A DNA stretch of 64,000 nt from the IMG/VR virus record IMGVR_UViG_2872980847_000002, positions 6,327 through 70,326 of that record, one strand, 5' to 3'. Source of the DNA: a virus. Its lineage: Duplodnaviria; Caudoviricetes. The notes under the pieces are model-generated. The model ran no database searches. It was not told the origin of the DNA and worked only from the letters and a program-made list of their open reading frames with translations. Position numbers and translations under genes: made by a program. Below are positions 3,926 to 30,090 of this stretch, in pieces; positions within the stretch are counted from its first letter, which is position 1; each line of letters opens with the position of its first letter.

Positions 3926-3927
3926 CC

Positions 3928-12748: not shown

Positions 12749-12857
12749 GTGACTCGGTCGGCTGTAGCTGGTGGGGACCACGCCCCTTCGACTTCGTGGA
12801 CGGCATCGCCTCGGCGGTGCGCGGAAGGCAACCGCAATCGTCCATGGAGACACGAGT

Positions 12858-14634: not shown

Positions 14635-14706
14635 TCGCTCGTACGGCCCGACACCCAGGCGCGCCTGCGGTGCCGGGCCGTCCTCGTCGTGGTGAAGGAG
14701 GTACCG

Positions 14707-15036: not shown

Positions 15037-15040
15037 GCGA

Positions 15041-15424
15041 TCAGGCGGCGCGTGCTGGGAGCCGGTCTCGCCATTGCTCCAAGTCGGTGGTTGCCTGCCG
15101 GAGGTCCTGGATCAGCTGGTCCAGGACCTCGATGGTGGGGACCGGGATGTAGTCGCGCTCGGGCTGGCCCTGCTCGTTTTCCAGGCCCAGTTCAATGCGG
15201 GAGGGACTGCGCCCTTCGTCGGGGAGGTTGTAGTCCTCGCTGCAGACGGTGGTGAACGCGAACTGGAATCGTCCTCCGTCGACCATCGGGGGCAGCTTGA
15301 CGGTGAGGGGGGCGGACTCGTGGATGATCGAGTCGGTCTCGGGGTTCTCGTCGGCGTGGTTCCCTGCACACCATTGCGGGCAGTTGCCACCGGTTACCGA
15401 TAGTTTCCAGTCTTGCGCGTTCAT
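15041..15424 (-). CDS. DUF6907-like hypothetical protein (alternative start 15445)
   Basis: CPQWC..H...H motif. Confidence 0.55.
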   Translation of the reverse strand: MNAQDWKLSVTGGNCPQWCAGNHADENPETDSIIHESAPLTVKLPPMVDGGRFQFAFTTVCSEDYNLPDEGRSPSRIELGLENEQGQPERDYIPVPTIEVLDQLIQDLRQATTDLEQWRDRLPARAA

Positions 15425-15575
15425 AGTCCGAATTCTGCCACTCATCTGGAATGATCTATTCCGGGTGGGTGGCTGTCTTGAGGGGCGGTCGGCGTGGACG
15501 GCCGTTCGACTTGGTCGTCGAGACACTGCTCGGTGCGTTTTGCTTGTGGCACCTGGCTTCCGGGACTATGGCGGC

Positions 15576-16904
15576 ATGGCCTCGTTGAAGCAGTTTGAGC
15601 CCGCGTCCGGCACCCGCGATTTCCTCGCCGTCGAGCATGAGAGGCGGGAACGCGCGTTCGCGACGATCCGGGAAGTGTTCGGCCGCTACGGCTTTCAGCC
15701 CCTCCAGACGCCGGCGTTCGAAAGGTTGGACGTCCTCACCGGCAAGTACGGCGATGAGGGCGACCAGCTGATCTTCAAAATCCTGAGGCGCGGCGAGCAT
15801 GAGGCGACCGGCGAGGCCGACCTTGCTCTGCGCTACGACCTCACGGTCCCGCTGGCCCGCGCGGCGGCGGCCTACGGCAGTCAGCTGCCCTCCCCGTACA
15901 AGAGGTTCGCGATCGCGCCGGTGTGGAGGGCAGACCGTCCGGGCAAGGGACGCTTCCGCGAGTTCGTGCAGTGCGACCTGGACATCGTCGGGTCGTCCTC
16001 GCCGCTGTCCGACGCCGAGGTCGTCCTCGCCCTGCACGACGCGCTCGAAGCTCTGGGGGTGCCGGAGTTCCGGTTCCTGCTGAACTCCCGGCACGTCCTG
16101 TTCGGCCTGCTGGAGGCGTACGCGGTTCCCGAGGACCTGGGCTCCGGCGTGCTGATCACGCTCGACAAATTGGACAAGCTCTCCCCGGAGGCTGTCGTCG
16201 GCGAGCTGGTGACCAAGCGCGGGCTGGCGCAGGACGTGGCGCAGGGCCTGGTGGATGACCTGACCTCGCCGGACGCGGTCGAGCGGATCCGGGGTGAGCT
16301 GGCGTCCAGCGAGATGGGACAGGCAGGTCTGGCGGAGGTGGACCGGCTGCTGGAGCTGACCAAGGACGCGATCCCCGCCGAGCGGATCGCGTTCACGCCA
16401 AACCTGGTGCGCGGACTCGACTACTACACGGGGCTGATCTTCGAGGTCTCGGCGCCGGGCATGCCGGGATCGATCGCCTCCGGCGGCCGGTATGACGGGC
16501 TCATCGCCCGGCTCGGCGGCAAGGACTCCCCGGCCTGCGGCGGCTCGCTCGGCGTTGAGCGGATCCTTCCGCTGCTGGAGCAGGCCGACCAGGACGCCTA
16601 CTCGCAGATCGACGTGGCTGTCACGGTCATGGGCGAGGACCTGTCGGCGGACAGCTTCCGGCTGGCGGCTGAAATCCGCCGGGCCGGGGTTCGAACCGGT
16701 GTTTACCTCGGGTCCAGTGGGAAGTTCGCCAAGCAGATGAAGTGGGCCAACGACCAGGGTGCCCGCTTCTGCGTGATCTACGGCCAGAGTGAGCGCGACG
16801 CCGGCACGGTCACGCTGCGGGACATGAACAGCGGCGAGCAGGTCCACGTCCCGCTCGATGAGGCTGCCGCGGAACTCGCGCGGCGGTGCGCACCATCCAG
16901 TTGA
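15576..16904 (+). CDS. hisS: Histidyl-tRNA synthetase, full length
   Basis: GTRDF, LRYDLTVP, WRADRP..GRFREF.QCD, LVRGLDYY, GGRYDGL, SLGVERI, C-terminal anticodon-binding domain. Confidence 0.97.
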   Translation: MASLKQFEPASGTRDFLAVEHERRERAFATIREVFGRYGFQPLQTPAFERLDVLTGKYGDEGDQLIFKILRRGEHEATGEADLALRYDLTVPLARAAAAYGSQLPSPYKRFAIAPVWRADRPGKGRFREFVQCDLDIVGSSSPLSDAEVVLALHDALEALGVPEFRFLLNSRHVLFGLLEAYAVPEDLGSGVLITLDKLDKLSPEAVVGELVTKRGLAQDVAQGLVDDLTSPDAVERIRGELASSEMGQAGLAEVDRLLELTKDAIPAERIAFTPNLVRGLDYYTGLIFEVSAPGMPGSIASGGRYDGLIARLGGKDSPACGGSLGVERILPLLEQADQDAYSQIDVAVTVMGEDLSADSFRLAAEIRRAGVRTGVYLGSSGKFAKQMKWANDQGARFCVIYGQSERDAGTVTLRDMNSGEQVHVPLDEAAAELARRCAPSS

Positions 16905-16949
16905 CGCGCAGCGGGCCCTGTCCGCTGCCGACTTTCTTAGGAGGAGCGG

Positions 16950-17561
16950 ATGGGAACGCAAGGCGACAAGATTTTCGCGGTGACGGCTGAGCGCGGGTTC
17001 CCCGACCCGTGGCTCAGCTTCGGCGACTCACTGTGTGACGAGGCCGCGCTGAGCACGGAGTTAACCCGCGCGATCAGCAGGGCCCGCAAGGAACCGTCGG
17101 CCGAGGCGCGTGCCGAGGTCGCGCGGGTCTTCGAGGCGAAGAAGGCAAACCTGCGGCGCTGCGCCGGGATCCTCGACCAGGTCCTGGGCGACTACGACGA
17201 CTCGGGCATGTGGACGGTCCTGGATGAGCGGGCCGGAAGGCTCGATGTCGCGGACGTGCTGGAGACGTGGGCGCGCACGCAGGCGCTGCACCCGTTCCCT
17301 GTCGTGCTCAAGAGCCTGGAGTTCAACTGGGGCTACATGAAGGAGCACGGCGTCCGGGCGTTCTACGAGATGACCCGCGGCTATATCGCGCGGTTGAAGG
17401 AGAACACTGACCGCTGGCACGACGCCTGGGATGGCGAGGTCGAGACCGGGGTGGTGGACCGCATCACGTCCATCGAGTGCGACCTGGCGAGCATCGAGGC
17501 GCCGATGCACTGCGACGTGTGCAAGAAGACGATCAGCGCGTTGCTGTACCTCGACGAGTAG
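16950..17561 (+). CDS. Hypothetical protein downstream of hisS, C-terminal Cys cluster
   Basis: AGGAGG SD; ECD...HCDVC; in-frame TTA at 17061. Confidence 0.8.
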   Translation: MGTQGDKIFAVTAERGFPDPWLSFGDSLCDEAALSTELTRAISRARKEPSAEARAEVARVFEAKKANLRRCAGILDQVLGDYDDSGMWTVLDERAGRLDVADVLETWARTQALHPFPVVLKSLEFNWGYMKEHGVRAFYEMTRGYIARLKENTDRWHDAWDGEVETGVVDRITSIECDLASIEAPMHCDVCKKTISALLYLDE

Positions 17562-17596
17562 CTAGCGGCGGCCCGGCGGGCTGCCGTGGCCCTGAA

Positions 17597-17641
17597 GCGT
17601 TGCGCCCCCGCATCCGAGTGATCGGAGCGGGGGCGCAACGC
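17597..17641. terminator. Hairpin between convergent genes
   Basis: GCGTTGCGCCCCCG ... CGGGGGCGCAACGC. Confidence 0.75.
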
Positions 17642-17648
17642 TTGGCGA

Positions 17649-17897
17649 CTACTTGAGGTCGAACTCGCCGTCGCGGGCGCCGAGGATGAACGCCTCCCAC
17701 TCGGCTGCCGTGTAGCGGAGCGGCGGGTCGTCCGGGCAAGCGGAGTTCCGCATGGCTACTGCGCCTTCCGGCAGGCGTGCGATCTCCACACGGTTGCGTG
17801 GGTCGCTGCCGGGCGCCCCTATCCACTCCAAGCCACTCAGGTCGAGGTCATAGAGGTCGTCCTGCGCTCGGCCCTCGCTCACGTCAGACAGTGCCAT
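17649..17897 (-). CDS. DUF397 protein
   Basis: VEIA..GAVAMRNS..LRYT.AEW.AF..G.RDGEFD. Confidence 0.9.
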   Translation of the reverse strand: MALSDVSEGRAQDDLYDLDLSGLEWIGAPGSDPRNRVEIARLPEGAVAMRNSACPDDPPLRYTAAEWEAFILGARDGEFDLK

Positions 17898-18096
17898 TCC
17901 GTACAGCCGTGACGAACTCCTGCCACACGGCTGGGGCAAAGGTGTGGGCTCCCAGAAGGCGGTTCTTGCTGTCGCCGCAGGCGATGTCACCCTCGGCGGT
18001 CGTCTGCTTCTCGAAGCATTGCCCCCCGTTATCGGTGCTGTAGGAGGACTTGGACCACTTGTCCTCGGGGAGGTCGTGCCGCATCATCTGGTGCAC
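17884..18096 (-). CDS. DUF397 protein
   Basis: W.KSSYS..GGQC.E..DSK..W..FV. Confidence 0.88.
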   Translation of the reverse strand: MHQMMRHDLPEDKWSKSSYSTDNGGQCFEKQTTAEGDIACGDSKNRLLGAHTFAPAVWQEFVTAVRNGTV

Positions 18097-18197
18097 CTGC
18101 CTCTAACTGATCAGTTCCATCGATTGCCGTGATGGCGGGTGTTCTTCTTCTGCACGGCGAGGAGGAACACCCGCGTTCTACTTGTGGCTGATGTTGG

Positions 18198-18425
18198 TTA
18201 TGCGCCGACGTAACCGACGAAGGACGACCATGCTGACTTCGGTACGACGATGGCTGGTCCTTGCTTGTCTTTGGAGTCGCGGATGCCGACGTGGCCGGTG
18301 TAGGCCAGGTCGGCGACCTCGACGCAATTGCCGTTGTTCTGCGAGCTGTACGAGGACTTCGTCCATGCACTCTCAGGGGCCAGGTCTGTGGAGGTGGGGA
18401 ACCGCTGATGCTGAGTCATGTCCAT
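18198..18425 (-). CDS. DUF397 protein
   Basis: WTKSSYS..GNCVEVA..IRDSK..W..FV. Confidence 0.92.
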   Translation of the reverse strand: MDMTQHQRFPTSTDLAPESAWTKSSYSSQNNGNCVEVADLAYTGHVGIRDSKDKQGPAIVVPKSAWSSFVGYVGA

Positions 18426-19276
18426 AGTTTCTTTTCGAGGGCTTGCAGGATTTGCGGCGTCTGAGCAGGGCCGGGAGCTGCCTTGACCATGGCATCGAAC
18501 TGCCGCTGGTACTGCCCGACATCCGCCTCCTTGGACCACATGGTTGTGGCCTTGGCACTGTCACTCTGAACCACCGGTCCGAGGTCGGCGAACTCTAGGA
18601 CTGTGAAGTTGAACCCAGCTCGATAGGTAGGCAGGTCTTCAGGGATGATCTGCACCTCAACGTTGTCCAGGCTATTGAGGCGGATGATCTCTGCGTACTG
18701 GGCGCGCATGACCTCGGGGGAGCCGACAACCGTACGCAGGGTGTTCTCCGTCAGGATTATGTGCACCTCGGCGCTGCCTGACGACAAAGTATTTTTGCGG
18801 TCCATCCGCAGCTCGACTCCGCGATCAACGAACTCCGTAGTTCGTTCTTCGACGATCTTCGCGGAGCCGCCCAGGGCCTGCGCATAGGCCTCATCTTGCA
18901 GCAGGCCGTGGACGACGTTGTTCTCATACCCGCGGATCTTGATCGCATCGCGCTCCAGACCGAGATAAAGCGGCAGCCCAGAGGGCAGCAAGTTTCGGTA
19001 CGAAGTGAACGGCTCCTTGCTGAGTGAGTCCCGCTGCATCTTCAGCAGCTCGGCGCGATCGTCCAGGTCTGTCACCCTGTAGCGGTCCATCATCTTTTCG
19101 AGATCCGCAAGCTTGGGAAGCGGAATATCCCCCGCCTCGACCCGACTGATCTTCGAACGCGAGAAGCCCAAGGCAACGGACACCGCCTCCGCTGTCTCGC
19201 CAGTGCGCTCGCGGAGGGTCCGCAGCTCCTTCCCGAGCGCCACTCGTAGGTAGGTCGGTCCTCGTCGTGCGGCCAC
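18416..19276 (-). CDS. XRE HTH + DUF5753 regulator (Scr1/WhiJ-like)
   Basis: LGKELRTLRE HTH; HGLLQDEAYA; EVQIIP. Confidence 0.92.
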   Translation of the reverse strand: MAARRGPTYLRVALGKELRTLRERTGETAEAVSVALGFSRSKISRVEAGDIPLPKLADLEKMMDRYRVTDLDDRAELLKMQRDSLSKEPFTSYRNLLPSGLPLYLGLERDAIKIRGYENNVVHGLLQDEAYAQALGGSAKIVEERTTEFVDRGVELRMDRKNTLSSGSAEVHIILTENTLRTVVGSPEVMRAQYAEIIRLNSLDNVEVQIIPEDLPTYRAGFNFTVLEFADLGPVVQSDSAKATTMWSKEADVGQYQRQFDAMVKAAPGPAQTPQILQALEKKLWT

Positions 19277-19775
19277 CTGTCCCCTCACTTCGGTTCGCTG
19301 TCCGTCAGATCGAGGCCCCTGTCCAGCTGTACAGAGTTTCTGTCCACTGGGCCCGGGGTTCAGTCCGGAGTCTGGCATGCCCTGCCCTCTCTGCAACACC
19401 CTCTGTCGGTTACTTGGCAATTGCCAATACGGACTAGACGGCACTTTCGTCAGAGCTTTCCCTTGAATGTTAATTGGGGTGTGCGCAACGCTTGTTGGGC
19501 CGCGCAGGCGTCGCTTCATCACGGGGCGGGACTATCGCGCGGTGCAGTCGAGTGCACCTGCTGCGCGGTCCGGCGGCCGACCTCGTCGAGACCTGCGAGC
19601 GCAGCGGTGCCTCGCTCAAAGGCTCCCGTACTGCCTACTGTGACAGGTGCCCGACGATGACGAAGTCAACCGACCGAGCAAGCCGCAAACTTTGCGCTGG
19701 TAGCTTCGAGACCTGCTGTGCCCGGATGGTGTGGGTAGCGATCTGTGATTGCCCCGAAGCTGCGGGCGGCGACAC

Positions 19776-20297
19776 ATGAGGGCGCCCAGCACCTCATGTT
19801 CAGCCAGCCGCATCGCTGAGGCCAGCACGCAGCACTACCGGCAGCAACTCACCGCTGACCCAGAGCAGATCCGGCGCGTACGCCGGATCGTCACCGCCTT
19901 CCTGCGGTACTGGGGTTGGGGACAGTTCATCGACCCGGCGGTCCTGTGCGTCACGGAGATGCTGTCCAACGTGCGGAGCCACGCGGACTCCGACGACTGC
20001 GTTCTTCTCCTCCAGGCGTCACCGGCCGGCGTGCGCATCGTGGTTAGCGACGGCAGTCAAGCTCTCCCCGTCGTGCGTGAGCCTGAATGGCTCGCGGAGC
20101 GCGGACGCGGAATGTTCCTGCTGAGCAGCAGCGCCGATGCCTGGGGAGCTGACATCACCCGCGAGGGCAAGGACGTCTGGATCGAGTTCTGGAGTGGTGC
20201 TGCGGAATCGCGGGATGGCGTCGCCGTCCCTGCACGGCCCGAAACCGACTGCCCTGTCGGCGGTTCGTCGCTCGCAACCAGCAGGCGGTCAGCGTGA
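19776..20297 (+). CDS. ATP-binding anti-sigma-like protein (HATPase_c_2)
   Basis: TEMLSNV..H, VSD, ERGRGMFL, WG, GKDVW. Confidence 0.9.
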   Translation: MRAPSTSCSASRIAEASTQHYRQQLTADPEQIRRVRRIVTAFLRYWGWGQFIDPAVLCVTEMLSNVRSHADSDDCVLLLQASPAGVRIVVSDGSQALPVVREPEWLAERGRGMFLLSSSADAWGADITREGKDVWIEFWSGAAESRDGVAVPARPETDCPVGGSSLATSRRSA

Positions 20298-20674
20298 GTC
20301 AGCCGATTCCCCAGAGCTACTGGTGCTACATGGCTTGTTTCAGGCCCGGCAGTGACCGCATGACGATGAGCACCGACATCGTCCTCCCGTACCCCGGCCG
20401 CGCCATCAGCTGGATACGCCAAGAAGTGCGGCTGGTGGCCGCTGGGTTGGCCGACGAAGCGGACCGCGCCAAAGCGACGACCTGGCTCGACGACCTCATA
20501 ACCGCAGGAGTCGCCGTTCGCGAACTGCGGTCCGGCTCCGGTTCGTACGCGTTCCAGCTGATCACTGCGCGGGGCGCCCGGTGGATATGGGCCGGTCACG
20601 ACGCCGCCCGGCTGTCTGCTCTCACGGCACCCGAACCCCACCCGGCCCTCGCCGGCCGGACACCCACCCACTGA
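20294..20674 (+). CDS. Hypothetical protein
   Basis: GTGA-coupled ORF. Confidence 0.6.
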   Translation: MSQPIPQSYWCYMACFRPGSDRMTMSTDIVLPYPGRAISWIRQEVRLVAAGLADEADRAKATTWLDDLITAGVAVRELRSGSGSYAFQLITARGARWIWAGHDAARLSALTAPEPHPALAGRTPTH

Positions 20675-20707
20675 ACTCGCGCCATCTCAACGCCTCTTGG
20701 AGAGATC

Positions 20708-20878
20708 ATGGCTCGCTCCACCCAAGCTCCCTTTCCCCGTCTCCGGTGGGCGGTACGGCACCCGATCAAGATCTTGGACCGCGCAGGATTCGGCCCGGTG
20801 CAAGCGGCCGTCGTCGGGATCTTCTTCGTCGGCGTGCTCGTCTGGCTCGCAATGACCTACCTCTCCCTGCGCCGCTAG
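20708..20878 (+). CDS. Small single-TM protein (56 aa, absent from ORF track)
   Basis: TTGGAGAG SD; MARSTQAPFPRLRW...VVGIFFVGVLVWLAMTYLSLRR. Confidence 0.6.
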   Translation: MARSTQAPFPRLRWAVRHPIKILDRAGFGPVQAAVVGIFFVGVLVWLAMTYLSLRR

Positions 20879-21104
20879 CGGCTCCCAGACCGGTCCTCCC
20901 GCGCTTGGCCTTTCGCGGGAGGACCGCCCGGGCCTCGTTGCTCCCGCCGGTTCCCAGCCCGGCAGGTCGTAGCGACGAGCGACGCACACCGCCCGGTCAT
21001 GCGGATGTGCGTCCCGGCCGCCGCGTTCAGGGGTGCGCGCGGCGGCCGGCCCACCCACCTACCCGTCCCCCTTCCGAACCTCCCGACCGTCCCCGGAGAC
21101 CCGC

Positions 21105-21749
21105 ATGACCCGCAAGGCCCCGCCCCTGCCACACCTCAGCCTTACTGCGCCTCAGCCCGCCCGGCAGGAGACAGCCAACGCGGCATACGCCCTTGACCGA
21201 GAGCTACGTGCGGCTGGCCTGAACAGCCTCATGCCCAGGCTCGACACCAACGGCGCAGTGCCGTACGTCAGGCTGAACGGGATCAACACCGCGGCGGCAG
21301 ATGAACTGACGCAGTTGCTTCGCAAGGCGATGCGCGGCACCTACAAGGTGGCCGCCCAACTGCGCGCCGCGGTGCGGGCCCACGGCCTGGACGACTTCCC
21401 CGAACCGACCGTCTACGACTCAAAGATCCATCTCGGCGACGTCTCGATCGCCACGGCGGACAAGCTGGCCTGCGTCCTTGGCGCCCCACCCCAGGCCGAG
21501 CTGGCAGAGACCCCTGACTGGCCCGAGGCCCAGCAGGTCGCGAACCGGCTCGACGTCGCGTTCAAGAAGGCCACCGGCGGCGGATTCATGGATCAGTACC
21601 TCCACCCCTACTGCCGGCGATGCGACTGCGACCCGGCCATCGAGCTGGGAGACCTCACCAAGGGCACCGCTCGACGACTGGTGAAGGCACTCCACGAGGC
21701 TCACGACGCCGCCCCGGCGCCCGCCGCACTGAGGGAGAGGTCGGCATGA
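21105..21749 (+). CDS. Hypothetical protein with CxxC
   Basis: GGAGA SD; coupled to next gene. Confidence 0.7.
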   Translation: MTRKAPPLPHLSLTAPQPARQETANAAYALDRELRAAGLNSLMPRLDTNGAVPYVRLNGINTAAADELTQLLRKAMRGTYKVAAQLRAAVRAHGLDDFPEPTVYDSKIHLGDVSIATADKLACVLGAPPQAELAETPDWPEAQQVANRLDVAFKKATGGGFMDQYLHPYCRRCDCDPAIELGDLTKGTARRLVKALHEAHDAAPAPAALRERSA

Positions 21750-22651
21750 CGGCATTCGAACTGCCCAAGGACCACGATGCCCGACGCCGGTACCTGAACA
21801 GCCCCCGGGTCCCGCACATCTACGACTTCCTGATCGGTGGCAACGAGTCCTATCACCAGGACCGCGAGGCCGCCATCGCCCTCTACCAGGTGGCCGACTG
21901 GATCAAGACCGCCGCTCTCATCAACCGCGAGTTCGGCCGCTTGTCGGTCCAGATGTCCTTGGAGTTGGGCGTCAGGCAGTTCCTCGACCTGGGATGCGGC
22001 CTGCCCGCCAAGCCCACCAAGCCGGTGGCAGCCGACCTCCACGAAACCGTCGCCAAGGTCGAGCGCGGTTGCCCCGTCGTCTACGTGGACCGCGACCCCG
22101 CCGTGTACGGCCACGCGAAGTGCGAGCTGGACGACAATCCTCCGCACAACACCACCGCGGTGCATGCCGACCTGCTCGACATGTACCAACTCCTAGGCAG
22201 CGACGAGGTGACCGACGCCTTCGACCTCTCCCAGCCGGTCGCCGTCACCATCCACGACACCCTGCCCTGGACTGAAGACGACGCAGCCGTAGAGCACGCC
22301 TTGAAGGTGCTGCGGCAATGGATGCCGCCGGGCAGCACCCTGTCGATCACCCATCTGACCGACCATTGGCACCCCGTCACGATGCCCGATTTGGTCGCGG
22401 CCTATGACCGGCTCGGCATCGGTGTACGGCCCCGCACCCAGGCACAGATCGCCGACCTCTTCGGGGACTTCGTCCACCAGGGGCCGGGACTGGTCGCCAC
22501 GGGGCGGTGGTTCGACAACGGCCCGTACTTCCTGCACCCGCCCGAGCACTCGGCCGCCTTCGCTGGCATCGCCCGCAAGGCCGGGCCGGTAGCCAAGCTG
22601 CCCCACGAAGACGCCCGCGAGGCGGCCACCGTACGGGGAGAGGCGGCATGA
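21746..22651 (+). CDS. SAM-dependent methyltransferase (actinobacterial Methyltransf_19-type)
   Basis: IYDFLIGG..DREAA, RQFLDLGCGLP, VVYVDRDP. Confidence 0.9.
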   Translation: MTAFELPKDHDARRRYLNSPRVPHIYDFLIGGNESYHQDREAAIALYQVADWIKTAALINREFGRLSVQMSLELGVRQFLDLGCGLPAKPTKPVAADLHETVAKVERGCPVVYVDRDPAVYGHAKCELDDNPPHNTTAVHADLLDMYQLLGSDEVTDAFDLSQPVAVTIHDTLPWTEDDAAVEHALKVLRQWMPPGSTLSITHLTDHWHPVTMPDLVAAYDRLGIGVRPRTQAQIADLFGDFVHQGPGLVATGRWFDNGPYFLHPPEHSAAFAGIARKAGPVAKLPHEDAREAATVRGEAA

Positions 22652-23220
22652 CCACAGCGAGGAACCCGTCTCCTACGACGTGGGACCACTGGGAGCACAA
22701 CGGCCACACCTTCCGGGTGATCACCGACACCGAACTCGACCGCTTCACGCGCTACTGCCTGGGGCGCCGCGGCCGGATCGCCATCGACGCCGGCTGCGGA
22801 AATGGCGCCTTCTCCCGCCAACTGCACCGCTTCGGCTTCGACGTCACCGGCCTCGACTTCGCACACGTACCGCTGACTGCCGCCCGCCGGACACCGCTGC
22901 CCGATGTGCGTTACGTACACCACGATCTCGATCAGGGCGACCCGCCTGGACTGCCGCCGCGCGGCATAGACCTCGTGGTGTGCCGCATGGTGCTCCCCTT
23001 CCTCTCCCAGCCGTACGCGTGGGTCCGGCGTGTACGCGACCACTGGCTGCGCGATAACGGACGGCTCTACCTCGTCATCCCCCGGGCGGACGCACACACA
23101 GCCCAGCCCGGCGGCATGACCGAGCAAGAGATCGCCGACCTCACCACCGGATGGGGCAGCGTCGTCCGCTACGACCTGCGCGGCCCCCTGGCCTGCCTTG
23201 TGCTCGGCACAGGCACATAG
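22648..23220 (+). CDS. Class I SAM-dependent methyltransferase
   Basis: IDAGCGNG, VTGLDF, DLVVCRMVL. Confidence 0.85.
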   Translation: MTTARNPSPTTWDHWEHNGHTFRVITDTELDRFTRYCLGRRGRIAIDAGCGNGAFSRQLHRFGFDVTGLDFAHVPLTAARRTPLPDVRYVHHDLDQGDPPGLPPRGIDLVVCRMVLPFLSQPYAWVRRVRDHWLRDNGRLYLVIPRADAHTAQPGGMTEQEIADLTTGWGSVVRYDLRGPLACLVLGTGT

Positions 23221-23319
23221 ACCGCCGCTCGGTGGTCCGGAGCCACTAGCCCGCACCATCGAGCGGCCTTCCAACGCCCCGCTCCGGGGCTCCCGACAAC
23301 CCAGATCAAGGGGGACCTG

Positions 23320-24252
23320 TTGACCGCTCTCGAAAGCGATGACTTCCGTGTGGTGTCGTGGAACGTCGAGCACAACGGCATCGGCCGCGACGGCTCCGAT
23401 GACCGCTGGCACCTGGCCATGGACGTGCTCGCCGCACTCCAGCCGCACGTGGTGCTCCGCCAGGAGCTGACCCGCGCGGACATGTACGGCCGGCGCGCAG
23501 TCTGGGCCGAGGCCGCCCGACTGGGAGGCCACGTGCCGTTCCTCGCGAGCGCCACACCGGAATCCGCCAACCCCACCGGCGTGTATGTCGATCCGAATCT
23601 GTGCGAACCGACGGAGTACTACGAGCACACCACCGGCATGTGGCATCCGGTCTGCAACCCGGTCGTGCGGATCAAGGGAGCCCCGGCCAAGCTGAGCCTG
23701 GCCTCGGTTCACCTCTGCTCCTTCGACCCCGACCGTCGCGTCAACGAAGCAAGGCGACTGACCACCCTGGGCAAGCCGGGGATGGCAGCGATCATCGGCG
23801 GCGACTTCAACTCCTACCCGCACGACGAGTCGGAGGCGGCATCTCTGCCCGACTGGGAGGAGGTCGAGGACCGCTCGCACTTCGAGCACCGCACGATCGA
23901 CTCAGGCGGCGTGCGCGTCTCCGACACCCGCCCCGACCGCATCCTCGCCGGGACCCATCACGGCCGCCCACCGGTGTTCGTCGAACTGGGGCAGTACGCG
24001 ACGACGCAGCGGCACGTCCCCGGCGCACTCGCGCCTACTTCCTCGCTGTGGCGCACGGACCAGGGCCCGATGCGGCGCATCGACCGGATCTACGCCACAC
24101 CGCAGGTGGCCGAAGCCCTGACGGACCTGGAGGTCATCGTCAACGACGAAGTCCGTGAGGCATCCGACCACCTCCCGGTCCTCGCCACCTTCAGCCTGTC
24201 CCGTCTGCGTCAGGCACTGTCCCCGTCCACGACCGCGGCCACGGCCGCCTGA
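23320..24252 (+). CDS. Endonuclease/exonuclease/phosphatase (EEP) protein
   Basis: SWNV, LRQE, GGDFN, RIDRIY, SDHLPV. Confidence 0.92.
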   Translation: MTALESDDFRVVSWNVEHNGIGRDGSDDRWHLAMDVLAALQPHVVLRQELTRADMYGRRAVWAEAARLGGHVPFLASATPESANPTGVYVDPNLCEPTEYYEHTTGMWHPVCNPVVRIKGAPAKLSLASVHLCSFDPDRRVNEARRLTTLGKPGMAAIIGGDFNSYPHDESEAASLPDWEEVEDRSHFEHRTIDSGGVRVSDTRPDRILAGTHHGRPPVFVELGQYATTQRHVPGALAPTSSLWRTDQGPMRRIDRIYATPQVAEALTDLEVIVNDEVREASDHLPVLATFSLSRLRQALSPSTTAATAA

Positions 24253-24269
24253 TCAGGAGACGATCAGCG

Positions 24270-25190
24270 ATGCGCGCACTGATCAAGGGCAACGGTCGCC
24301 CCGTCACCGTGCTGTCCTGGAACTTCGAGCGCAACGGCGCCGAGGACGCAGCCAAACGCACCCAGGCCCATGAGCTGCTGGTGTCCCTCAACCCACACCT
24401 TGTGCTCCGGCAGGAGATGTGGGGTGCGGACGCCAACGGCAACACGATCATGTACCAGCTGGAGGACGTCCTCGGCATGCGCGGCTGGCTCGGGCCCCAG
24501 TCGTCCACCGCCGTGTTCGCCGACCCGCGGGTCTTTCGCACGCTGCGGGAGTGGCCGAACACCGGTCCCATGTGGGTGCAGCCACCGACCGCGCTGACCA
24601 TGGGATACGTACCCGCGGGGACCGACGCCACGCCGCTGCTGGTGGCGTCCTACCACCTCAACTACGCCTCGCCCACCAACCGGCTCGCCGAGGTCGAATG
24701 GCTCTCGACCTGGGCTGACAAGAAATGGACCACCCCGGGCGGCGAGAGCGTGAGCGCGCCCGCCCTGCTCGGCGGGGACAACAACGCCTACCCGGCCCCG
24801 GGCCTCGACGGCGACCCGGCGTTGCCCGAACTCGCGGAGATCAACGACCGGCCCCACCGGCTGCACCGCTCCTACGTCGGCCCGGAGGGTTCCCGGCAGA
24901 TGGACACCCGCCCGGACGAGGCGCTGCGCACCGCCGGCATGCAGGACGTCGCCCGCTACTGGGCCACCGCGCGCGGTGGAGACAAGACCGCGGTCTCCCG
25001 CACGGTCAACGCCTGCCAGACCCACGGGCCTGACTCGCGCATCGACAGGATCTACGCCACAACCGACCTGTTGGACGCGGTGACCGGCGTGGACGTCATC
25101 GAGGTCCCGCTCGAACTGTCAGACCACCACATCGTCCGCTTGACGCTGGACGGCGACTGCCTGTCCGACATCCTCCACCGCCGCCCCTAG
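24270..25190 (+). CDS. EEP protein (paralog)
   Basis: SWNF, LRQE, GGDNN, RIDRIY, SDHHIV. Confidence 0.92.
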   Translation: MRALIKGNGRPVTVLSWNFERNGAEDAAKRTQAHELLVSLNPHLVLRQEMWGADANGNTIMYQLEDVLGMRGWLGPQSSTAVFADPRVFRTLREWPNTGPMWVQPPTALTMGYVPAGTDATPLLVASYHLNYASPTNRLAEVEWLSTWADKKWTTPGGESVSAPALLGGDNNAYPAPGLDGDPALPELAEINDRPHRLHRSYVGPEGSRQMDTRPDEALRTAGMQDVARYWATARGGDKTAVSRTVNACQTHGPDSRIDRIYATTDLLDAVTGVDVIEVPLELSDHHIVRLTLDGDCLSDILHRRP

Positions 25191-25349
25191 CCGACCGGCA
25201 CCGTGCCCTCGAACCGGCCGCCCTGACGCTCGCGGCCCCGAGGGCTCACCAATTCCCGGTGTGGAGGGTCAGGCGGCCCTATCCATTCCCCAACGGCAAG
25301 GCATGGCAGCCCTCCACACCGGGTCACCCAACATCACCAGGAGGACCAA

Positions 25350-26333
25350 ATGAGCACCCACCTCGGACTGCCCACCGTCCCGGAGCAGACCCGCCGAGAC
25401 CTGGGCAACGGCGTGGCCTTCGCCTTCAACGCCCACCACTTCGACGCCGAGCCGAACCTCGACGTCGAGGCCGCCGCCAACGCGGCCACCGTCCCGCTGT
25501 CCGTGATCGTCCAGGTGACCAAACGCTGCGACTTCGGCTGCTCGTTCTGCAGCGAGACCTTGCAGAAGCCGGACCCGACCCTCGAACAGCTCGACACGAT
25601 CCGCAAGCACCTCGCCGGCGTCGGCCGCGTGTTCCTCTCCGGCGGCGAGCCGCTGATCCGCAAGGACTTCAGCGAGATCGTAGACATGTACCACCGCGAC
25701 CACATCGTCGCCGTCCCGACGAACGCAACCCACGGCCTGGACCACGCCCGCAACATCGCCGGGAAGATCGCGTTCGCCAACATCGGCCTGGAAGGCCCCC
25801 GCGCCACCACCAGGCGCGTGCGCGGCGACTACGACAAGCAGATGGCTGGCGTCCGGGCCCTCCAGGAGGAAGGCATCCCCCTGGCCCTGTCCTCCGTCGT
25901 CTACCGCTCGACCCTGTCGGCACTACCGTTCACCGTCCAGATCGCCGACGTACTCGGCGCCGGCAAGGTCAAGTTCATCCTCCCCCTGCGCAAGGGCAAC
26001 GCGCTGGGCCTGCCCGACCACGAGTTCATCACCCAGGACGAAGCCGAAACCACCTTCGCCCGCCTGAAGGAAGCTCGCGCGGAGCACCAGTGGTCACCTG
26101 CCCTGCGGCTGACGACCTGGACCCCGCAGAACGAGGGCCACATGATCGTCATCGAACCCGACGGCATCGCACGGGCCTGGCCGGTCTACGACGCCACGGA
26201 CCTGTGGGAGCCGCTGGGCAACGTGCTGGAGGAGCCGATCACCGAGATCTGGAAGCGGTACCGCTTCAAGGTCAACCACTACTCCAAGTACCTGGGGCGC
26301 TCGATCCACACCGTCTCCCAAGGGGTGGCGTGA
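25350..26333 (+). CDS. Radical SAM protein without SPASM cysteines
   Basis: CDFGCSFC (CxxxCxxC), SGGEPL, PTNA. Confidence 0.93.
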   Translation: MSTHLGLPTVPEQTRRDLGNGVAFAFNAHHFDAEPNLDVEAAANAATVPLSVIVQVTKRCDFGCSFCSETLQKPDPTLEQLDTIRKHLAGVGRVFLSGGEPLIRKDFSEIVDMYHRDHIVAVPTNATHGLDHARNIAGKIAFANIGLEGPRATTRRVRGDYDKQMAGVRALQEEGIPLALSSVVYRSTLSALPFTVQIADVLGAGKVKFILPLRKGNALGLPDHEFITQDEAETTFARLKEARAEHQWSPALRLTTWTPQNEGHMIVIEPDGIARAWPVYDATDLWEPLGNVLEEPITEIWKRYRFKVNHYSKYLGRSIHTVSQGVA

Positions 26334-26334
26334 C

Positions 26335-27123
26335 ATGAAGGACCTGTCGAACCTCGGATGGCCAGAAGCACCGTTCGGCTCGGTGACCCGACCCGTGCAG
26401 AAGCCGGGTTCGTGGCTGACCGCCGTGTCCATGATCTGGGCTGACGCGGGCGAAGAGCCCATCATCATGGGCGCTGCCGCGGTATTCCTGCAGATCCACC
26501 GCACCCGCTCCCTGCCCGTCACGCCGTCACTGGCGCACTTCGGATACCGAGTCCTGGTGCCCGAGACGTTAGACGAGAACATCGCCATCCTCACCCGGCT
26601 CGACACCATCCTGGTGCAGGCCCGGCGCGAGGCACAGGTCATCGCCTGGCACCACGCGGTCGACGACCTCCATCTCCTGTGTCGCCAAGCCGAGGCGGTC
26701 ACTGACTCCCGCTACCCGGGGGTCAGCGCGATCGCCGAGGCGTGGCAGGACCGCGGGCACCGGGAGCCGAGTACGGCCCGCTGCGTGGACACGGCCCTGG
26801 ACCTCGGACCGAACGGGCTGGTCAGCGATACCGCGGTCGCGAACGACCTGACGCCGATGCCGCAGTTCGCCGGCATGCAGCAGCAGACGCGGGCCCAGCA
26901 CGCCTGTGAGGCGCTGGTCGAGGACCGATACGCCGACTACGCCCCCGAGATGATGGCGGTCAACGTGCTCTCCTCCGCCCTCATGACCGGCCTGCTCGGT
27001 GGGTTGCAAGCCGAACGACTCCACTGGGACGCGCCGTTGGTCGCGTCCGACCTGCTGGAGAACGTGGCGTGGGACATCGCACCGTCGGTGCTCGGCGGCG
27101 TGGTGACCCCGCAGACCCAGTAA
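26335..27123 (+). CDS. Degenerate DEDD-exonuclease-like protein
   Basis: VIAWHHAVDDL and VDT parallel the next gene; lacks DxE; in-frame TTA at 26569. Confidence 0.5.
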   Translation: MKDLSNLGWPEAPFGSVTRPVQKPGSWLTAVSMIWADAGEEPIIMGAAAVFLQIHRTRSLPVTPSLAHFGYRVLVPETLDENIAILTRLDTILVQARREAQVIAWHHAVDDLHLLCRQAEAVTDSRYPGVSAIAEAWQDRGHREPSTARCVDTALDLGPNGLVSDTAVANDLTPMPQFAGMQQQTRAQHACEALVEDRYADYAPEMMAVNVLSSALMTGLLGGLQAERLHWDAPLVASDLLENVAWDIAPSVLGGVVTPQTQ

Positions 27124-27185
27124 CGTCCGGCGGGGCCGCACGCAACCAGAGTGCGGCCCCTGTCACCGCTCAGGGGAACATCCCA

Positions 27186-28046
27186 ATGATCATCAAGAGC
27201 ACCCGGCCGGCTACGCCTTTTCAGCCGCCGCGGCGGCAGTCGGGCATCACCCGCCTCGCCGCGATCGACGTCGAGTGGACGAAGAACTACCACATCAAAA
27301 ACGGGCAACGCCCCTTCTGCTACAGCATCGTCTGGCTCGACCTGCCCAGCTCCGGTACCGCAGACCTGACCGCGGTCCCGTTCGAATGGACCAGCGTCTA
27401 CGTCGAGGAGCCCGACGAGATGGACGCGCTCGTACGCCACGCCGCGAACACCGTCGCCACCGCGGCCGACTCGGCAGACATCATCACCGGTCACCAGTTC
27501 TGCGCCGACCTGTCCGTCCTGGAAGCCACCGCGCCCCACGACGCCATCACCCCCCTACAGAAGGCCCGCGAGCAGTGGCGGCAGCGCCGCAAGGCCGACC
27601 CCACCACAAGCCACTACCTCGACACCCGCTACGACGCCGGACACCTCCTCGCAGGTGCATCCCGCCGTCTGGTCGACGTCTGCACCGAACTCGGCCTTGA
27701 CGTCACGCAGCCCGAGCTGCGCACTGTGTCCATGCCCGCGTGGCACCGGCGCTGGATCGAGGACAGCCACGCCGAAGGCCGCGAACGCGTCTCCGTGTTG
27801 AACCTGCGCCACTCCGTCTCGACCGCGTACGTCGCCGCCCGAACAGCCGACCTCGGCCAGTGGCCGGCCGCGGGCCTGAACGTCAACCGAGTCCTTGCCG
27901 ACGGCGCTCAAGGCGCCTGGGCCTGGCTGACCAACCCCACCTTCACCGCCCTCCTGGAGGACACCACGTGCCCATCCGCGAATGCCGGGTTATCGCCGTC
28001 GAAGGCACCCAGGCGGCAGGCAAAACCACCCTCGTCCACGCACTGA
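27186..28046 (+). CDS. DEDD/DnaQ-like 3'-5' exonuclease
   Basis: AIDVEW (ExoI), ITGHQFCADL (ExoII), LDT. Confidence 0.65.
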   Translation: MIIKSTRPATPFQPPRRQSGITRLAAIDVEWTKNYHIKNGQRPFCYSIVWLDLPSSGTADLTAVPFEWTSVYVEEPDEMDALVRHAANTVATAADSADIITGHQFCADLSVLEATAPHDAITPLQKAREQWRQRRKADPTTSHYLDTRYDAGHLLAGASRRLVDVCTELGLDVTQPELRTVSMPAWHRRWIEDSHAEGRERVSVLNLRHSVSTAYVAARTADLGQWPAAGLNVNRVLADGAQGAWAWLTNPTFTALLEDTTCPSANAGLSPSKAPRRQAKPPSSTH

Positions 28047-28579
28047 CCGCGCACCTCCGCGAGCAAGGCGTCGGAGTCGCCTGCACCGGCGAGCCCGCCC
28101 GCACCAGCCCGTTCATGGAGGAGATCGTCCTGCACGGCAAGGGCCACTTCGACCTGCCCGCCGAGATCGACCTCTTCGGCCAGCAACTCTCCATTCCCCT
28201 GCGCGCCGCCCGCCACCACCAGGTGCTGATCACCGACAAGACCCCGGCCAACGTGACCGCCCTCGCCCGCATGGTCCTCGACGCCAGCGAGCCCGGCACC
28301 GGAGCCGTCCTGGCCGCCGCCGAAGCGTTCTGCCGGGCCTGGATGCCCCTCACCTACGACGCCATCGTCTACTGCCGCGACCGCTACGACCAGAAGTCCG
28401 GCGGGGACCGCATGCGCGAAAAAGTCCTCGCCCTCCAGGACGAGGCCGACGAAGTGATCTACCAAGCGTGCCGCGCCACGGGAGTGCCGATCCTGGAGAT
28501 GCCCACCGGCCTCACCGTCGCCGAACGTGTCCAGTGGACGACCCGGCACGTTGAGCACATGGGACTCTCCGCGACCTGA
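27968..28579 (+). CDS. P-loop NMP/thymidylate-kinase-like protein
   Basis: IAVEGTQAAGKTT, GEPAR, LITDK; GGAGG SD. Confidence 0.8.
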   Translation: MPIRECRVIAVEGTQAAGKTTLVHALTAHLREQGVGVACTGEPARTSPFMEEIVLHGKGHFDLPAEIDLFGQQLSIPLRAARHHQVLITDKTPANVTALARMVLDASEPGTGAVLAAAEAFCRAWMPLTYDAIVYCRDRYDQKSGGDRMREKVLALQDEADEVIYQACRATGVPILEMPTGLTVAERVQWTTRHVEHMGLSAT

Positions 28580-28627
28580 CCCCGCTACAGTCCCCTCCGG
28601 CAAAGCTCTACCGGTTGGAGGACGCCC

Positions 28628-29083
28628 GTGCCGCAGCTCCCCGTGAACGACGTCATGCTCATCCTGGAGCGGCCCGACGGCGCCGTGTGCCTTGCTGAGA
28701 GGCAGGGCACCGGCTACGCCGACGGCCAACTAAACCTTCCCTCCGGGAAAGTCGAGCCGGACGAAGACGTCTTCGCCGCCGTGATCCGCGAAGCCCGCGA
28801 AGAGATCGGCATCGACGTCGAACGCGATGCCCTGCGCATCGTCCACACCATGTACTTCCGCAACCCCGAGGGCGAAACCCGCGTCGGGTGGTTCTTCACC
28901 GCCACCCACTGGTCCGGCACCCCCACCAACCGCGAGCCCCACAAATGCGCCGGGCTCAGTTGGCACCTGCCCGATCAACTGCCGCACAACACCGTCCGAT
29001 ACAACGCCCTCGGCATCGCCCACCACCTCAAGGGCGAGCCGTTCTCCAGCCACTGGTACGACTGGAAAGACCAACTGAGCTGA
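28628..29083 (+). CDS. NUDIX hydrolase
   Basis: GKVEPDE...REAREEIG; NREPHKC. Confidence 0.93.
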   Translation: MPQLPVNDVMLILERPDGAVCLAERQGTGYADGQLNLPSGKVEPDEDVFAAVIREAREEIGIDVERDALRIVHTMYFRNPEGETRVGWFFTATHWSGTPTNREPHKCAGLSWHLPDQLPHNTVRYNALGIAHHLKGEPFSSHWYDWKDQLS

Positions 29084-29184
29084 AGGTTCTCCGGTAGGGC
29101 CCAGGGCCCACGCCGAGAGAGCCCCGTGGAGCGCCCTGTGCTGTCCGAGAACCCTCTTACCGCCTGTTGACTGGAGGAGCACCA

Positions 29185-29598
29185 ATGACGGATCTGACCG
29201 GAGCAGAGGGCCCCGGCGTCTCGGCCGCAGTCATCGTCCATGAGGGGCGCGTCCTTATGGTCCGACGGCGGGTGAGCGAAGGCGAGTTGTCGTGGCAGTT
29301 CCCCGCAGGGAAGATCGAGCCGGGAGAGACAGCGGAGGAAGCAGCCGTCCGTGAGACAAGCGAGGAAACGGGCCTGACAGTTTCCGCCGTCAAGTTGCTC
29401 GGCGAACGCGTGCACCCCAAGACACAGCGCCTCATGTCGTACACGGCATGCGATGTCGTGTCCGGAACCGCATACGTCGCAGCTCCCGAGGAACTCGCCG
29501 AACTCGTATGGTGCCGGCACTCTGAAATCCCAGAGTATGTGCCTTACGGACTCTATGAACCGGTTCAGGAGTACCTCGATCAGGTGCTGCCGCGATAG
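29185..29598 (+). CDS. NUDIX hydrolase
   Basis: GKIEPGE...RETSEETG. Confidence 0.93.
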   Translation: MTDLTGAEGPGVSAAVIVHEGRVLMVRRRVSEGELSWQFPAGKIEPGETAEEAAVRETSEETGLTVSAVKLLGERVHPKTQRLMSYTACDVVSGTAYVAAPEELAELVWCRHSEIPEYVPYGLYEPVQEYLDQVLPR

Positions 29599-29715
29599 TG
29601 GGGTGCCTGTGCAGGAACTCCTTAACGGACTGTTGCCACGGCAGGAGGCTGGCGAGGAACCTGCTGTAGCGCGGGGCGCCCCGTTCTGTCCGACAGCTGT
29701 CCTAGCGTCGTGGGA

Positions 29716-30090
29716 ATGGATCACCACAACGACGAGGATCTGCACCGAGTGAAGATCACCGCTCGCGGCGCGAAGGCTGCGATCGAGATCGACGGGCAGC
29801 GCATAGACCCGGGCGCCCTCAGCGGCTACACCGTCAGCCACCGCGAGGGAGAGCCGCCGCAGGTCGTTCTCCTTTCCAGCCAGGACGCGGAGACGGTCTT
29901 CAAGGGCCTGGCCCGGGTAGCGGTTGCTGACATGCCCGACCCTGGCCCGGCCGCCGCGATGTTCCTGGCGTCGATCGACCCTGAGGAACTGGAGCGGACC
30001 GCGCTGTGCCGACCCGACCTTGGCACCGGCCCGCACTCCCTGACCCAGGCGATGCTCACCCAGCTGCGGGAGTGGGCCAGTGGCGCTTGA
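29716..30090 (+). CDS. Hypothetical phage protein
   Basis: Overlaps next structural gene. Confidence 0.65.
   Translation: MDHHNDEDLHRVKITARGAKAAIEIDGQRIDPGALSGYTVSHREGEPPQVVLLSSQDAETVFKGLARVAVADMPDPGPAAAMFLASIDPEELERTALCRPDLGTGPHSLTQAMLTQLREWASGA

Follow-up and report, generated by a model that had tools for sequence, protein, structure and literature searches.

The stretch of DNA analysed here (the window, 64,000 nucleotides, positions 6,327 to 70,326 of record IMGVR_UViG_2872980847_000002) belongs to an IMG/VR provirus record 70,326 bases long and has a guanine-cytosine (GC) content of about 69%. It represents an integrated prophage of a Streptomyces-like host, since a protein identical to its radical S-adenosylmethionine (SAM) enzyme is encoded on a record from a 10.1-Mb contig. 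Between position 15036 and the gene at 29710-30090 the morphogenesis operon of this Streptomyces-type siphovirus prophage is interrupted by an island of about 15 kb, which an earlier reading of the sequence (hereafter the original prediction) had taken for a single system making a modified nucleotide. Comparison with related prophages and with other Actinomycetota identifies the site as a variable cargo hotspot that splits the operon. It was likely filled piecemeal by at least six independent modules, with a cassette of five genes as the only conserved multi-gene system.

Gene content of the island

Genes were chosen by third-position GC content and their proteins scanned against Pfam, NCBIfam, PHROGs and PADLOC (2.0 library, dated 2023). 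The island and the genes that border it read as follows, with scores in bits.

14689-15036, + strand: last conserved head-side gene ("adaptor", a name given from position only)
15041-15424, - strand: DUF6907 cargo gene (PF21848 40.7, cut-off 26)
15576-16904, + strand: auxiliary hisS (TIGR00442 358.6, cut-off 286.75)
16950-17561, + strand: protein of 203 amino acids, partner of hisS, without family match
17649-17990, 17884-18096 and 18198-18539, - strand: three BldB-like DUF397 genes, starts uncertain (PF04149 45.2, 48.3 and 71.8)
18416-19522, - strand: WhiJ-like XRE gene, HTH_31 plus DUF5753 (PF19054 132.6, PF13560 62.2); true start probably internal, near 19270
19749-20297, + strand: AbaA-like HATPase_c_2 gene, divergent from the XRE gene (PF13581 41.3)
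20294-20674, + strand: open reading frame (ORF) without family match
20708-20878, + strand: small hydrophobic ORF without family match
21105-21749, + strand: ORF without family match
21743-22651, + strand: Methyltransf_19 gene (MT19; PF04672 168.4)
22648-23220, + strand: class I SAM methyltransferase gene (MT2; PF13489, PF08242 and PF08241, about 42 each)
23320-24252, + strand: EEP (endonuclease/exonuclease/phosphatase) gene 1 (PF03372 31.5)
24270-25190, + strand: EEP gene 2 (PF03372 25.9)
25350-26333, + strand: cassette gene 1, radical SAM (PF04055 56.3, cut-off 29.5)
26335-27123, + strand: cassette gene 2, PolB-exonuclease fold without DxE, a putative pseudo-exonuclease (predicted structure)
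27186-28046, + strand: cassette gene 3, paralogue of gene 2, PolB-exonuclease fold (predicted structure)
about 27968-28579, + strand: cassette gene 4, P-loop kinase, start inferred from homologues (PF13521 37.6)
28628-29083, + strand: cassette gene 5, MutT/NUDT1-like NUDIX (NUDIX1; PF00293 63.8, cut-off 21.1)
29167-29598, + strand: second NUDIX, outside the cassette (NUDIX2; PF00293 83.2, cut-off 21.1)
29710-30090, + strand: first conserved tail-side gene, family not assigned
30080-30511, + strand: DUF6093 gene (PF19586 78)

Nearly all genes listed in the original prediction are thus where it had placed them according to Pfam, NCBIfam and PHROGs, and the co-orientation and overlaps that it described are present (20294/20297, 21743/21749, 22648/22651, 26333/26335 and about 27968/28046). 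The DUF6907 gene had been overlooked, and the protein called an ATPase is better described as an AbaA-like HATPase_c_2 of the anti-sigma type. For the gene called a head adaptor, the position fits the name while no family match was found in Pfam or PHROGs.

A variable cargo site between head and tail genes

The morphogenesis genes on the two sides of the island were assigned with PHROGs:

5387-6880: terminase
7848-9596: portal
11795-12748: scaffold
12771-13274: decoration
13289-14338: major head
30511-30939: neck1
31515-32123: major tail
33070-37326: tape measure

The site was compared across 37 proviruses related through their capsid protein, all of them searched with the complete set of island proteins. 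A homologue of the adaptor gene lies about 1.4 kb past the start of the capsid gene in 36 of the 37. Four distant relatives with a capsid 48-50% identical to that of the window (L115, L116, L118 and L120) have no island at the site; capsid, adaptor, the homologue of the 29710-30090 gene, neck1 and major tail follow each other within about 5 kb. The operon therefore runs through without cargo in these relatives, which agrees with the predicted insertion that splits the operon. Homologues of 29710-30090 and 30080-30511 directly precede neck1 both in these four and in a prophage that does carry an island (in genome G056), and because the former gene travels with the neck genes, the end of the island near 29600, as originally proposed, holds as well.

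Among the close relatives (capsid 80-93% identical), all differ in content after the adaptor. XRE/DUF397 genes occur there in five (L088, L103, L107, L108 and L114), two of which (L107 and L114, both without the cassette) also carry both EEP genes (83% and 74% identical), while the cargo of L089 comprises homologues of the 20294 ORF, MT2 and NUDIX2, and that of L095 the HATPase and NUDIX2. Neither the cassette nor hisS was found in any of these close relatives. Many of the related provirus records stop a few hundred bases past the adaptor, which is where a virus caller would be expected to stop if non-viral cargo followed.

The G056 prophage has an island of about 15.5 kb at the same site that can be read right through. 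Its left half resembles that of the window from hisS to 20294 (hisS 93%, partner 91%, DUF397 genes, XRE, HATPase 66% and a homologue of the 20294 ORF), apart from the missing DUF6907 segment of about 450 nucleotides. The right half (contig 3, about 42400-52700, corresponding to 2425-12596 of locus L141) is unlike that of the window and encodes a DUF6624 protein, two NUDIX proteins (one with HTH), a 447-amino-acid protein with a C-terminal NDK domain, a CYTH protein, two unknown proteins, a methyltransferase and a 663-amino-acid ABC-type ATPase. Beyond it follow the 29710 homologue, the neck genes, major tail and tape measure. The comparison of G056 with the window therefore indicates that the boundaries of the island are fixed while its content is swapped by module. 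In both, the cargo leans to nucleotide enzymes, and the right half of G056 may be another nucleotide-flavoured set that forms a system of its own.

In the window the modules are the DUF6907 gene, hisS with its 203-amino-acid partner, the WhiJ/BldB/AbaA-type trio with the small ORFs, the two methyltransferases with the two EEP genes, the cassette, and a NUDIX typical of the lineage. A repeat search gave no flanking direct repeats marking module boundaries, the sole long repeat family being the paralogy of the EEP genes. In this common lineage of Streptomyces prophages, a single position of the head-tail operon thus serves as a large and fast-changing cargo slot.

Distribution and mobility of the five-gene cassette

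The cassette comprises the five + strand genes at 25350-29083, in the order radical SAM, gene 2, gene 3, kinase and NUDIX1, and is the sole strongly conserved multi-gene unit of the island. When the whole island was compared by megablast with 50,697 phage records, the only match was Streptomyces phage Gilgamesh over 25356-29047 at 77.4% identity, where the counterpart (gp39-43) is bordered by HTH genes on one side and the portal gene on the other. In the protein collection, 718 relatives of the radical SAM protein reach E ≤1e-5, and the best 120 of these are 64-87% identical, with Streptomyces, Kitasatospora, Micromonospora, Carbonactinospora, Planosporangium and others among the named sources. 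Scanning a single genome of each species with a profile yielded 99 confirmed stretches, 80 of which were kept, and four cassette loci were found among the 2.9 million contigs of the IMG/VR viral collection. Among 401 sampled Streptomyces genomes the radical SAM gene is present in seven, three of which had been reached via cassette loci.

A tblastn search of 85 loci with 22 island proteins gave matches in 84 (a locus found later, L140, was left out). The radical SAM protein, 57-80% identical over these loci, is encoded in all 84, gene 2 in 79, the kinase gene in 73, gene 3 in 63 and NUDIX1 in 62. The HATPase gene follows with 22 loci, MT19 and the XRE gene with 13 each and either EEP gene with 3, while hisS, its partner, the 20294 and 21105 ORFs, MT2, the 29710 gene, the adaptor and the neck genes are found in none. 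The check that the original prediction had itself proposed, co-occurrence of its genes in other genomes, therefore comes out in favour of a five-gene core and against HisRS and most of the island, and the whole 15 kb does not behave as one system.

Within the cassette the genes lie on the same strand at fixed offsets. All five are present in order in 46 of the 71 loci that offer at least 4.5 kb of downstream sequence, loci that are spread across Actinomycetota; counted singly, gene 2 is in place in 68 of them, gene 3 in 57, the kinase in 68 and the NUDIX in 54. The distance from the radical SAM stop to gene 2 has a median of -2.5 nucleotides and is at most 100 nucleotides in 77 of 78 cases, and gene 3 and the kinase gene overlap by a median of 79 nucleotides. 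The five genes are co-transcribable, are inherited and transferred together, and their recognisable members all handle nucleotides or nucleic-acid ends. This much of the predicted nucleotide chemistry stands.

The flanks of the cassette are mostly singletons in all-against-all clustering. Its contexts include Gilgamesh-like prophages (integrase and portal-MuF, seven loci each), elements with Replic_Relax genes (five loci) and a Lentzea plasmid (one locus), and within Actinomycetota the cassette is transferred horizontally in one piece between phages, chromosomes, integrative elements and a plasmid.

These contexts bear on the possibility that the cassette reprograms the nucleotide pool for phage DNA. 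In such a scheme the NUDIX enzyme would convert deoxynucleoside triphosphates to monophosphates, the radical SAM enzyme would modify them and the kinase would re-phosphorylate them, while the exonucleases degrade or edit unmodified DNA; phage T4 with its hydroxymethyl-dC and the Z-genome phages follow a pool-reprogramming logic of this kind. NUDIX, kinase and modifying enzyme together suit this scheme, the cassette is embedded among late genes in the window, and in the temperate phage Gilgamesh and in three IMG/VR elements of 125-128 kb it sits just upstream of the portal gene. However, the clustering reveals no phage hallmark at most of the 80 genomic loci, some lie on a plasmid or beside Replic_Relax genes, the viral collection contributes only its four loci, and no dedicated polymerase is linked to the cassette. 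A role in phage DNA modification is accordingly regarded as unlikely.

Proteins of the cassette

Gene 1 occupies 25350-26333; the longest ORF of that region, 25259-26338, is in the wrong frame and was rejected. The protein has only three cysteines, all within the motif CDFGCSFC (CX3CX2C), and C60, C64, C67 and the GGEP motif are invariant in 13 radical SAM sequences. It lacks auxiliary-cluster cysteines and a SPASM match in Pfam, so that membership in the SPASM/twitch class was rejected, although some sources still label homologues "radical SAM/SPASM". Its nearest solved relatives by sequence are SkfB, PqqE, BlsE and MoaA. All NCBIfam matches remain far under their cut-offs, and their ranking supports none of the assignments considered, namely QueE/7-deazaguanine synthesis, spore photoproduct lyase, ribonucleotide reductase activase and MoaA. 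Identity with a prokaryotic viperin (pVip) was likewise rejected: the PADLOC pVip match of 35.2 bits covers only profile positions 2-116 of 257, viperins of the PDB match over only about 60-80 N-terminal residues in the cluster region (E 1e-4 to 5e-2), and no viperin model is among the best 25 of the 45 NCBIfam matches. Look-alikes in the ESM Atlas offered only "radical SAM" and RNase_H/PolB-exonuclease leads.

Genes 2 and 3, the two exonuclease-like genes of the original prediction, have no family match in Pfam, NCBIfam or PHROGs. They are paralogous (hhalign probability 99.5%, E 8e-23) and belong to a small family: of 1.84 billion proteins searched, 221 representatives reach E ≤1e-3, and almost all of these measure 240-290 amino acids. 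A 539-amino-acid protein considered as a fusion of the two (P0300) aligns with only part of either one; as it probably reflects a miscalled frame, it was not used. Both are predicted to adopt the PolB-exonuclease fold, with mean predicted local distance difference test values of 92.1 for gene 2 and 92.4 for gene 3. In a search independent of Foldseek, the gene 2 model aligned with 5mdn_B (Z 13.9, root-mean-square deviation 2.9, 170 residues) and the gene 3 model with 4b08_A (Z 14.7, deviation 2.8, 183 residues), while RNase T, WRN, ISG20 and DnaQ epsilon reached Z of about 9-10 (for gene 3, RNase T, WRN and ISG20 at 9.9-10.6). The Foldseek scores themselves are weak, with template-modelling (TM) scores of 0.3-0.45 for both proteins (gene 3: E 1e-4, TM 0.31-0.45), as are the RNase-H-like and PolB matches in BFVD (TM ≤0.4).

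The fold of both proteins thus agrees with the predicted pair of exonucleases, whereas the catalytic residues may be retained in one only. In gene 2 the DxE motif is replaced by a variable segment, AVSMIW, aligned to IDVEW of its paralogue, only M1, P13, R97 and G129 are invariant among 35 sequences, and the protein is probably catalytically dead. Gene 3, in which D28, E30, H103, D108, D146, D150 and D164 are invariant in 29 sequences, would be an intact paralogue and is predicted to be active.

The kinase profile finds weak matches to deoxynucleoside kinases and thymidylate kinases (TMK) in the PDB (E 1e-3 to 1e-2, for TMK about 0.01). A dTMP kinase was rejected, with TIGR00041 at 22.3 bits against a cut-off of 83.25 and aligned over the P-loop only; the name "thymidylate kinase" of Gilgamesh gp42 is annotation only. 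NUDIX1 has G40, E46, R54, E55, E58 and E59 as invariant residues, and its profile best matches MutT/NUDIX, Nudix hydrolase 1 and NUDT15, all nucleoside triphosphate (NTP) pyrophosphohydrolases.

With two PolB/DnaQ-fold proteins, one of them coupled to the radical SAM gene, the cassette might instead process or repair RNA or DNA ends, by exonuclease-fold binding or trimming, a 5'-kinase, a NUDIX pyrophosphohydrolase and a radical SAM step, and the EEP nucleases that adjoin it in three loci would suit such a task. The weak matches of the kinase are, however, to nucleotide and deoxynucleoside kinases rather than polynucleotide kinases, the NUDIX is closest to NTP-sanitising enzymes, and neither a ligase nor a helicase is linked to the cassette, which leaves end processing distinctly unlikely.

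Neighbours of the cassette and the regulatory trio

Recurrent neighbours in the clustering are the AbaA-like HATPase (23 loci), XRE-DUF5753 proteins (16) and MT19 (13), and a cluster of HTH regulators lies upstream in 39 of 79 loci. In 17 of 79 loci a co-oriented HATPase gene lies no more than 5 kb upstream, where chance would give about 2.2% (binomial p ~1e-12), and MT19 occurs within 10 kb at 13 of 84 loci, compared with a background of about 1.7% within 21 kb (p ~2e-9). Both p-values are overstated, since the loci are interrelated and the background was taken from only five cassette-bearing Streptomyces genomes, which hold 64-94 PF13581 and 2-15 PF04672 matches each. The cassette's association with the AbaA-like gene, the XRE-type regulators and MT19 nevertheless looks real. 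In this respect the original grouping of the switch and the methyltransferases with the nucleotide genes is partly borne out, for the HATPase/XRE trio and MT19 but not for MT2.

In 21 loci (L061, L062, L015 and 18 more, from Streptomyces to Solirubrobacterales) the cassette is accompanied by a protein of about 450-640 amino acids with an HTH-like segment, read by eye, at its N-terminus and a long C-terminal part of helical repeats, which has no Pfam match and is often encoded divergently from the radical SAM gene. It is possibly the regulator of the cassette where a WhiJ-like gene is absent. The recurrence of WhiJ/BldB/AbaA genes upstream of the cassette hints at what some of the dozens of such loci in each Streptomyces genome may control. 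Between two of the DUF397 genes of the window there is a 16-pair hairpin (18135-18174).

The EEP genes are paralogous, forming a single blastp cluster, and both scores are barely over the cut-off of 24.5 bits. NUDIX2, with homologues at 69-75% in the cassette-less relatives L089, L095 and G056, belongs to the island of this prophage lineage and not to the cassette.

The methyltransferases that sometimes adjoin the cassette, its confinement to Actinomycetota and the weak similarity of the radical SAM protein to BlsE of nucleoside-antibiotic synthesis would be compatible with a diffusible nucleoside-type secondary metabolite, that is, an antibiotic rather than an intracellular conflict system. 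Against this stand the absence of any conserved transporter, glycosyltransferase or other tailoring gene nearby, where the flanks are mostly singletons, the location of the cassette on phages and mobile elements, and its small, fixed size. Production of an antibiotic is considered improbable.

The hisS module and the single-pathway proposal

The hisS gene at 15576-16904 encodes a histidyl-tRNA synthetase (HisRS), with both PF13393 and PF03129 present beside the TIGR00442 match above the cut-off. The protein is 84-92% identical to a 442-amino-acid HisRS of some Streptomyces and 65-70% identical to Actinomadura HisRS; no close relative was found among the 50,697 phage records, the best being 40% identical. 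The 203-amino-acid partner occurs in seven of the 401 sampled Streptomyces genomes and adjoins the 442-amino-acid type of HisRS in all seven (L133-L139), co-oriented in six and convergent in one, while a pattern scan of IMG/VR found no relative. In each of five pair-bearing genomes that were checked, two hisS genes score above the cut-off, the housekeeping gene with 434-441 bits and the paired gene with 353-363 bits. The pair lies in a prophage only in G056, and in the other six genomes no homologues of the structural genes of this prophage or of the cassette genes were detected within about 10 kb.

Since hisS and its partner occur as a pair and at none of the 84 cassette loci, they represent a separate two-gene module, and nothing ties them to the nucleotide genes. 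They form a small puzzle of their own, a second HisRS always accompanied by the 203-amino-acid protein. A hairpin followed by a T-run is seen between the two genes (16908-16928), and a perfect 17-nucleotide inverted repeat with a 15-nucleotide loop lies just past the partner gene (17595-17643); this repeat and the hairpin at 18135-18174 are possible terminators or operator sites at module boundaries.

The original prediction had joined the whole 15 kb into one prophage-borne pathway for a modified nucleotide or an aminoacyl-adenylate mimic, with HisRS and the hydrolases providing self-immunity. Its genes do share one island and most are co-oriented, the HisRS is of the second-copy type with a lower score in the hisS model than the housekeeping enzymes (358 vs 434-441 bits), and G056 likewise combines the hisS module with nucleotide-type cargo. 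Yet the hisS pair is missing from every cassette locus, lives elsewhere apart from phage and cassette genes, and subsets of the modules are borne separately by the prophage relatives. The co-occurrence test largely refutes the single pathway, which is now highly improbable, and because neither hisS nor most of the other island genes accompany the cassette, HisRS as the immunity factor of the pathway is without support.

A possible role in conflicts of mobile elements

A role of the cassette in conflict is favoured because it resides on temperate phages, a plasmid and integrative elements amid highly variable surroundings. It may thus, tentatively, be a nucleotide-modifying conflict module for defence or exclusion on mobile elements. 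In this proposal the radical SAM enzyme would alter a nucleotide, which might be the 3'-terminal one of a nucleic acid that the pseudo-exonuclease holds. The pseudo-exonuclease, encoded by gene 2, which is translationally coupled to the radical SAM gene and its most constant partner (68 of 71 loci), would be the substrate-binding subunit; that it may bind the radical SAM enzyme is suggested by the gene spacing only. The predicted active paralogue encoded by gene 3 would excise or release modified nucleotides, the TMK-like kinase and the MutT-like NUDIX would shift the product between mono- and triphosphate states, and the product would act in conflicts of mobile elements with phages or hosts, by a logic akin to that of viperin with a nucleoside monophosphate (NMP) kinase. 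In many loci a WhiJ-like repressor or activator would switch the operon on from the AbaA-like gene.

A more specific version, in which a non-viperin radical SAM enzyme makes a toxic or chain-terminating nucleotide while docked to a dead exonuclease as presenter of a nucleotide or 3' end, an active exonuclease of the proofreading type, a dedicated NMP-type kinase and the MutT-like NUDIX give supply and self-protection, and a WhiJ/BldB/AbaA-type switch fires the system in Streptomycetaceae, is doubtful as a whole. If it were true, the enigmatic WhiJ/BldB/AbaA paralogues of developmental regulators would gain a role in defence against phages or mobile elements. If a modified nucleotide is indeed made, the cassette would add to viperin and the 7-deazapurine pathways a second way of making antiviral or DNA-modifying nucleotides by radical SAM chemistry.

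Several observations weigh against these proposals. Eight of the 71 testable loci, mostly in Frankia and relatives, keep genes 1, 2, 4 and 5 without gene 3, so that exonuclease activity is not essential to the core, and in 17 of the 71 the NUDIX is missing at its canonical place. The radical SAM protein is closest to the SkfB, PqqE and MoaA types, many of which act on peptides or cofactors rather than nucleotides. PADLOC yields the partial, generic radical-SAM match to pVip and a match of the NUDIX to the candidate family PDC-S07, and nothing further. To these comes the overstatement of the association p-values noted above. As for the piecemeal origin of the island, its modules could still cooperate in this prophage despite not co-occurring elsewhere. 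Being rare, conserved across orders and mobile, the cassette in any case offers a well-defined target for experiment.

Other features of the window

A tRNA scan of the window found none, and positions 14500-30600 gave no Rfam match up to E 0.1, which includes any leader upstream of hisS. A scan for promoters and terminators returned one promoter-like site (1.0 expected) and 11 terminator-like sites (5.7 expected) and was not used.

Upstream of the terminase, at 2585-3925, there is a fusion of phage DAM-like and GNAT-like domains (PF22555 271 bits, PF22559 160 bits). An amidase_2 lysin (40893-42134) and a PD-(D/E)XK nuclease (45478-46611) are encoded further on, and the right prophage arm carries an N6_Mtase-domain protein (54272-55309) and a DUF4192 protein (55887-57542). 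The GC content climbs to 0.77-0.78 at 59-61 kb. From 60768 to 64000 the minus strand carries a locus in the style of polymorphic toxins, with a SUKH-4 plus deaminase fusion (60768-61598), a SUKH-4 immunity gene (61611-62240) and a WXG100-like protein with a C-terminal XOO_2897-type deaminase domain (62309-64000) that runs off the window. This locus is probably host DNA past the end of the prophage.

Comparison with known systems

As a whole the island is an ordinary kind of thing, a hotspot for morons, the cargo genes that phages carry in their late operons. As in other such hotspots, foreign genes sit between conserved head and tail genes and vary among close relatives. What sets it apart is its size, 15 kb and about 20 genes inside the head-tail operon, and the nucleotide-enzyme flavour that recurs in the cargo of two relatives.

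The HisRS resembles the auxiliary aminoacyl-tRNA synthetases of actinomycetes in being an intact enzyme above the equivalog cut-off beside a housekeeping copy. It differs from them in its constant pairing with the 203-amino-acid protein (seven of seven genomes), and no biosynthetic cluster was seen adjoining it.

The trio, the NUDIX and the methyltransferase genes all belong to known families. The trio falls within a known type because its layout, an XRE-HTH gene, DUF397 protein(s) and a divergent HATPase_c-type AbaA paralogue, matches the WhiJ/BldB/AbaA paralogous loci as described in PMC10294661, which reports that a WhiJ paralogue controls its divergent neighbour and that BldB-type proteins modulate this control. 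XRE-DUF397 pairs work as regulators according to two further papers (PMC6262351, PMC10364602). Unlike the described loci, the trio here is borne by a prophage and has three DUF397 copies, and its AbaA-like gene is the first of a cargo operon; what links the trio to the cassette is the statistical association of the HATPase, found at 17 of 79 loci.

In the cassette, known superfamilies come together in an apparently undescribed arrangement. The original prediction had not recognised the gene set as a known pathway, and no description of the cassette arrangement was found in the full-text literature, a coverage that excludes subscription-only papers and supplements; a paper joining "Streptomyces phage" and "radical SAM" was set aside, as it concerns an attB site in an unrelated gene. 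The products of genes 2 and 3 share the fold of DnaQ-like and family-B polymerase 3'-5' exonuclease domains, with DxE and further invariant acidic residues retained in gene 3. Unlike those domains they are stand-alone proteins of about 260-290 amino acids with a helical C-terminal part, and gene 2 has lost the DxE motif.

A close parallel is that of pVip, whose products are 3'-deoxy-3',4'-didehydro nucleotides, with an NMP kinase. The radical SAM enzyme of the cassette is not a viperin and better matches SkfB and PqqE, and viperin systems are not known to include two exonuclease-fold proteins and a NUDIX. A kinase is encoded within three genes of 12% of bacterial viperin genes, according to a preprint (bioRxiv 10.1101/2023.09.13.557418). 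Similarly, the radical SAM gene of the cassette adjoins a nucleotide-kinase-like gene on mobile or variable DNA, and the logic proposed for it would be that of pVip, a modified nucleotide used as a weapon.

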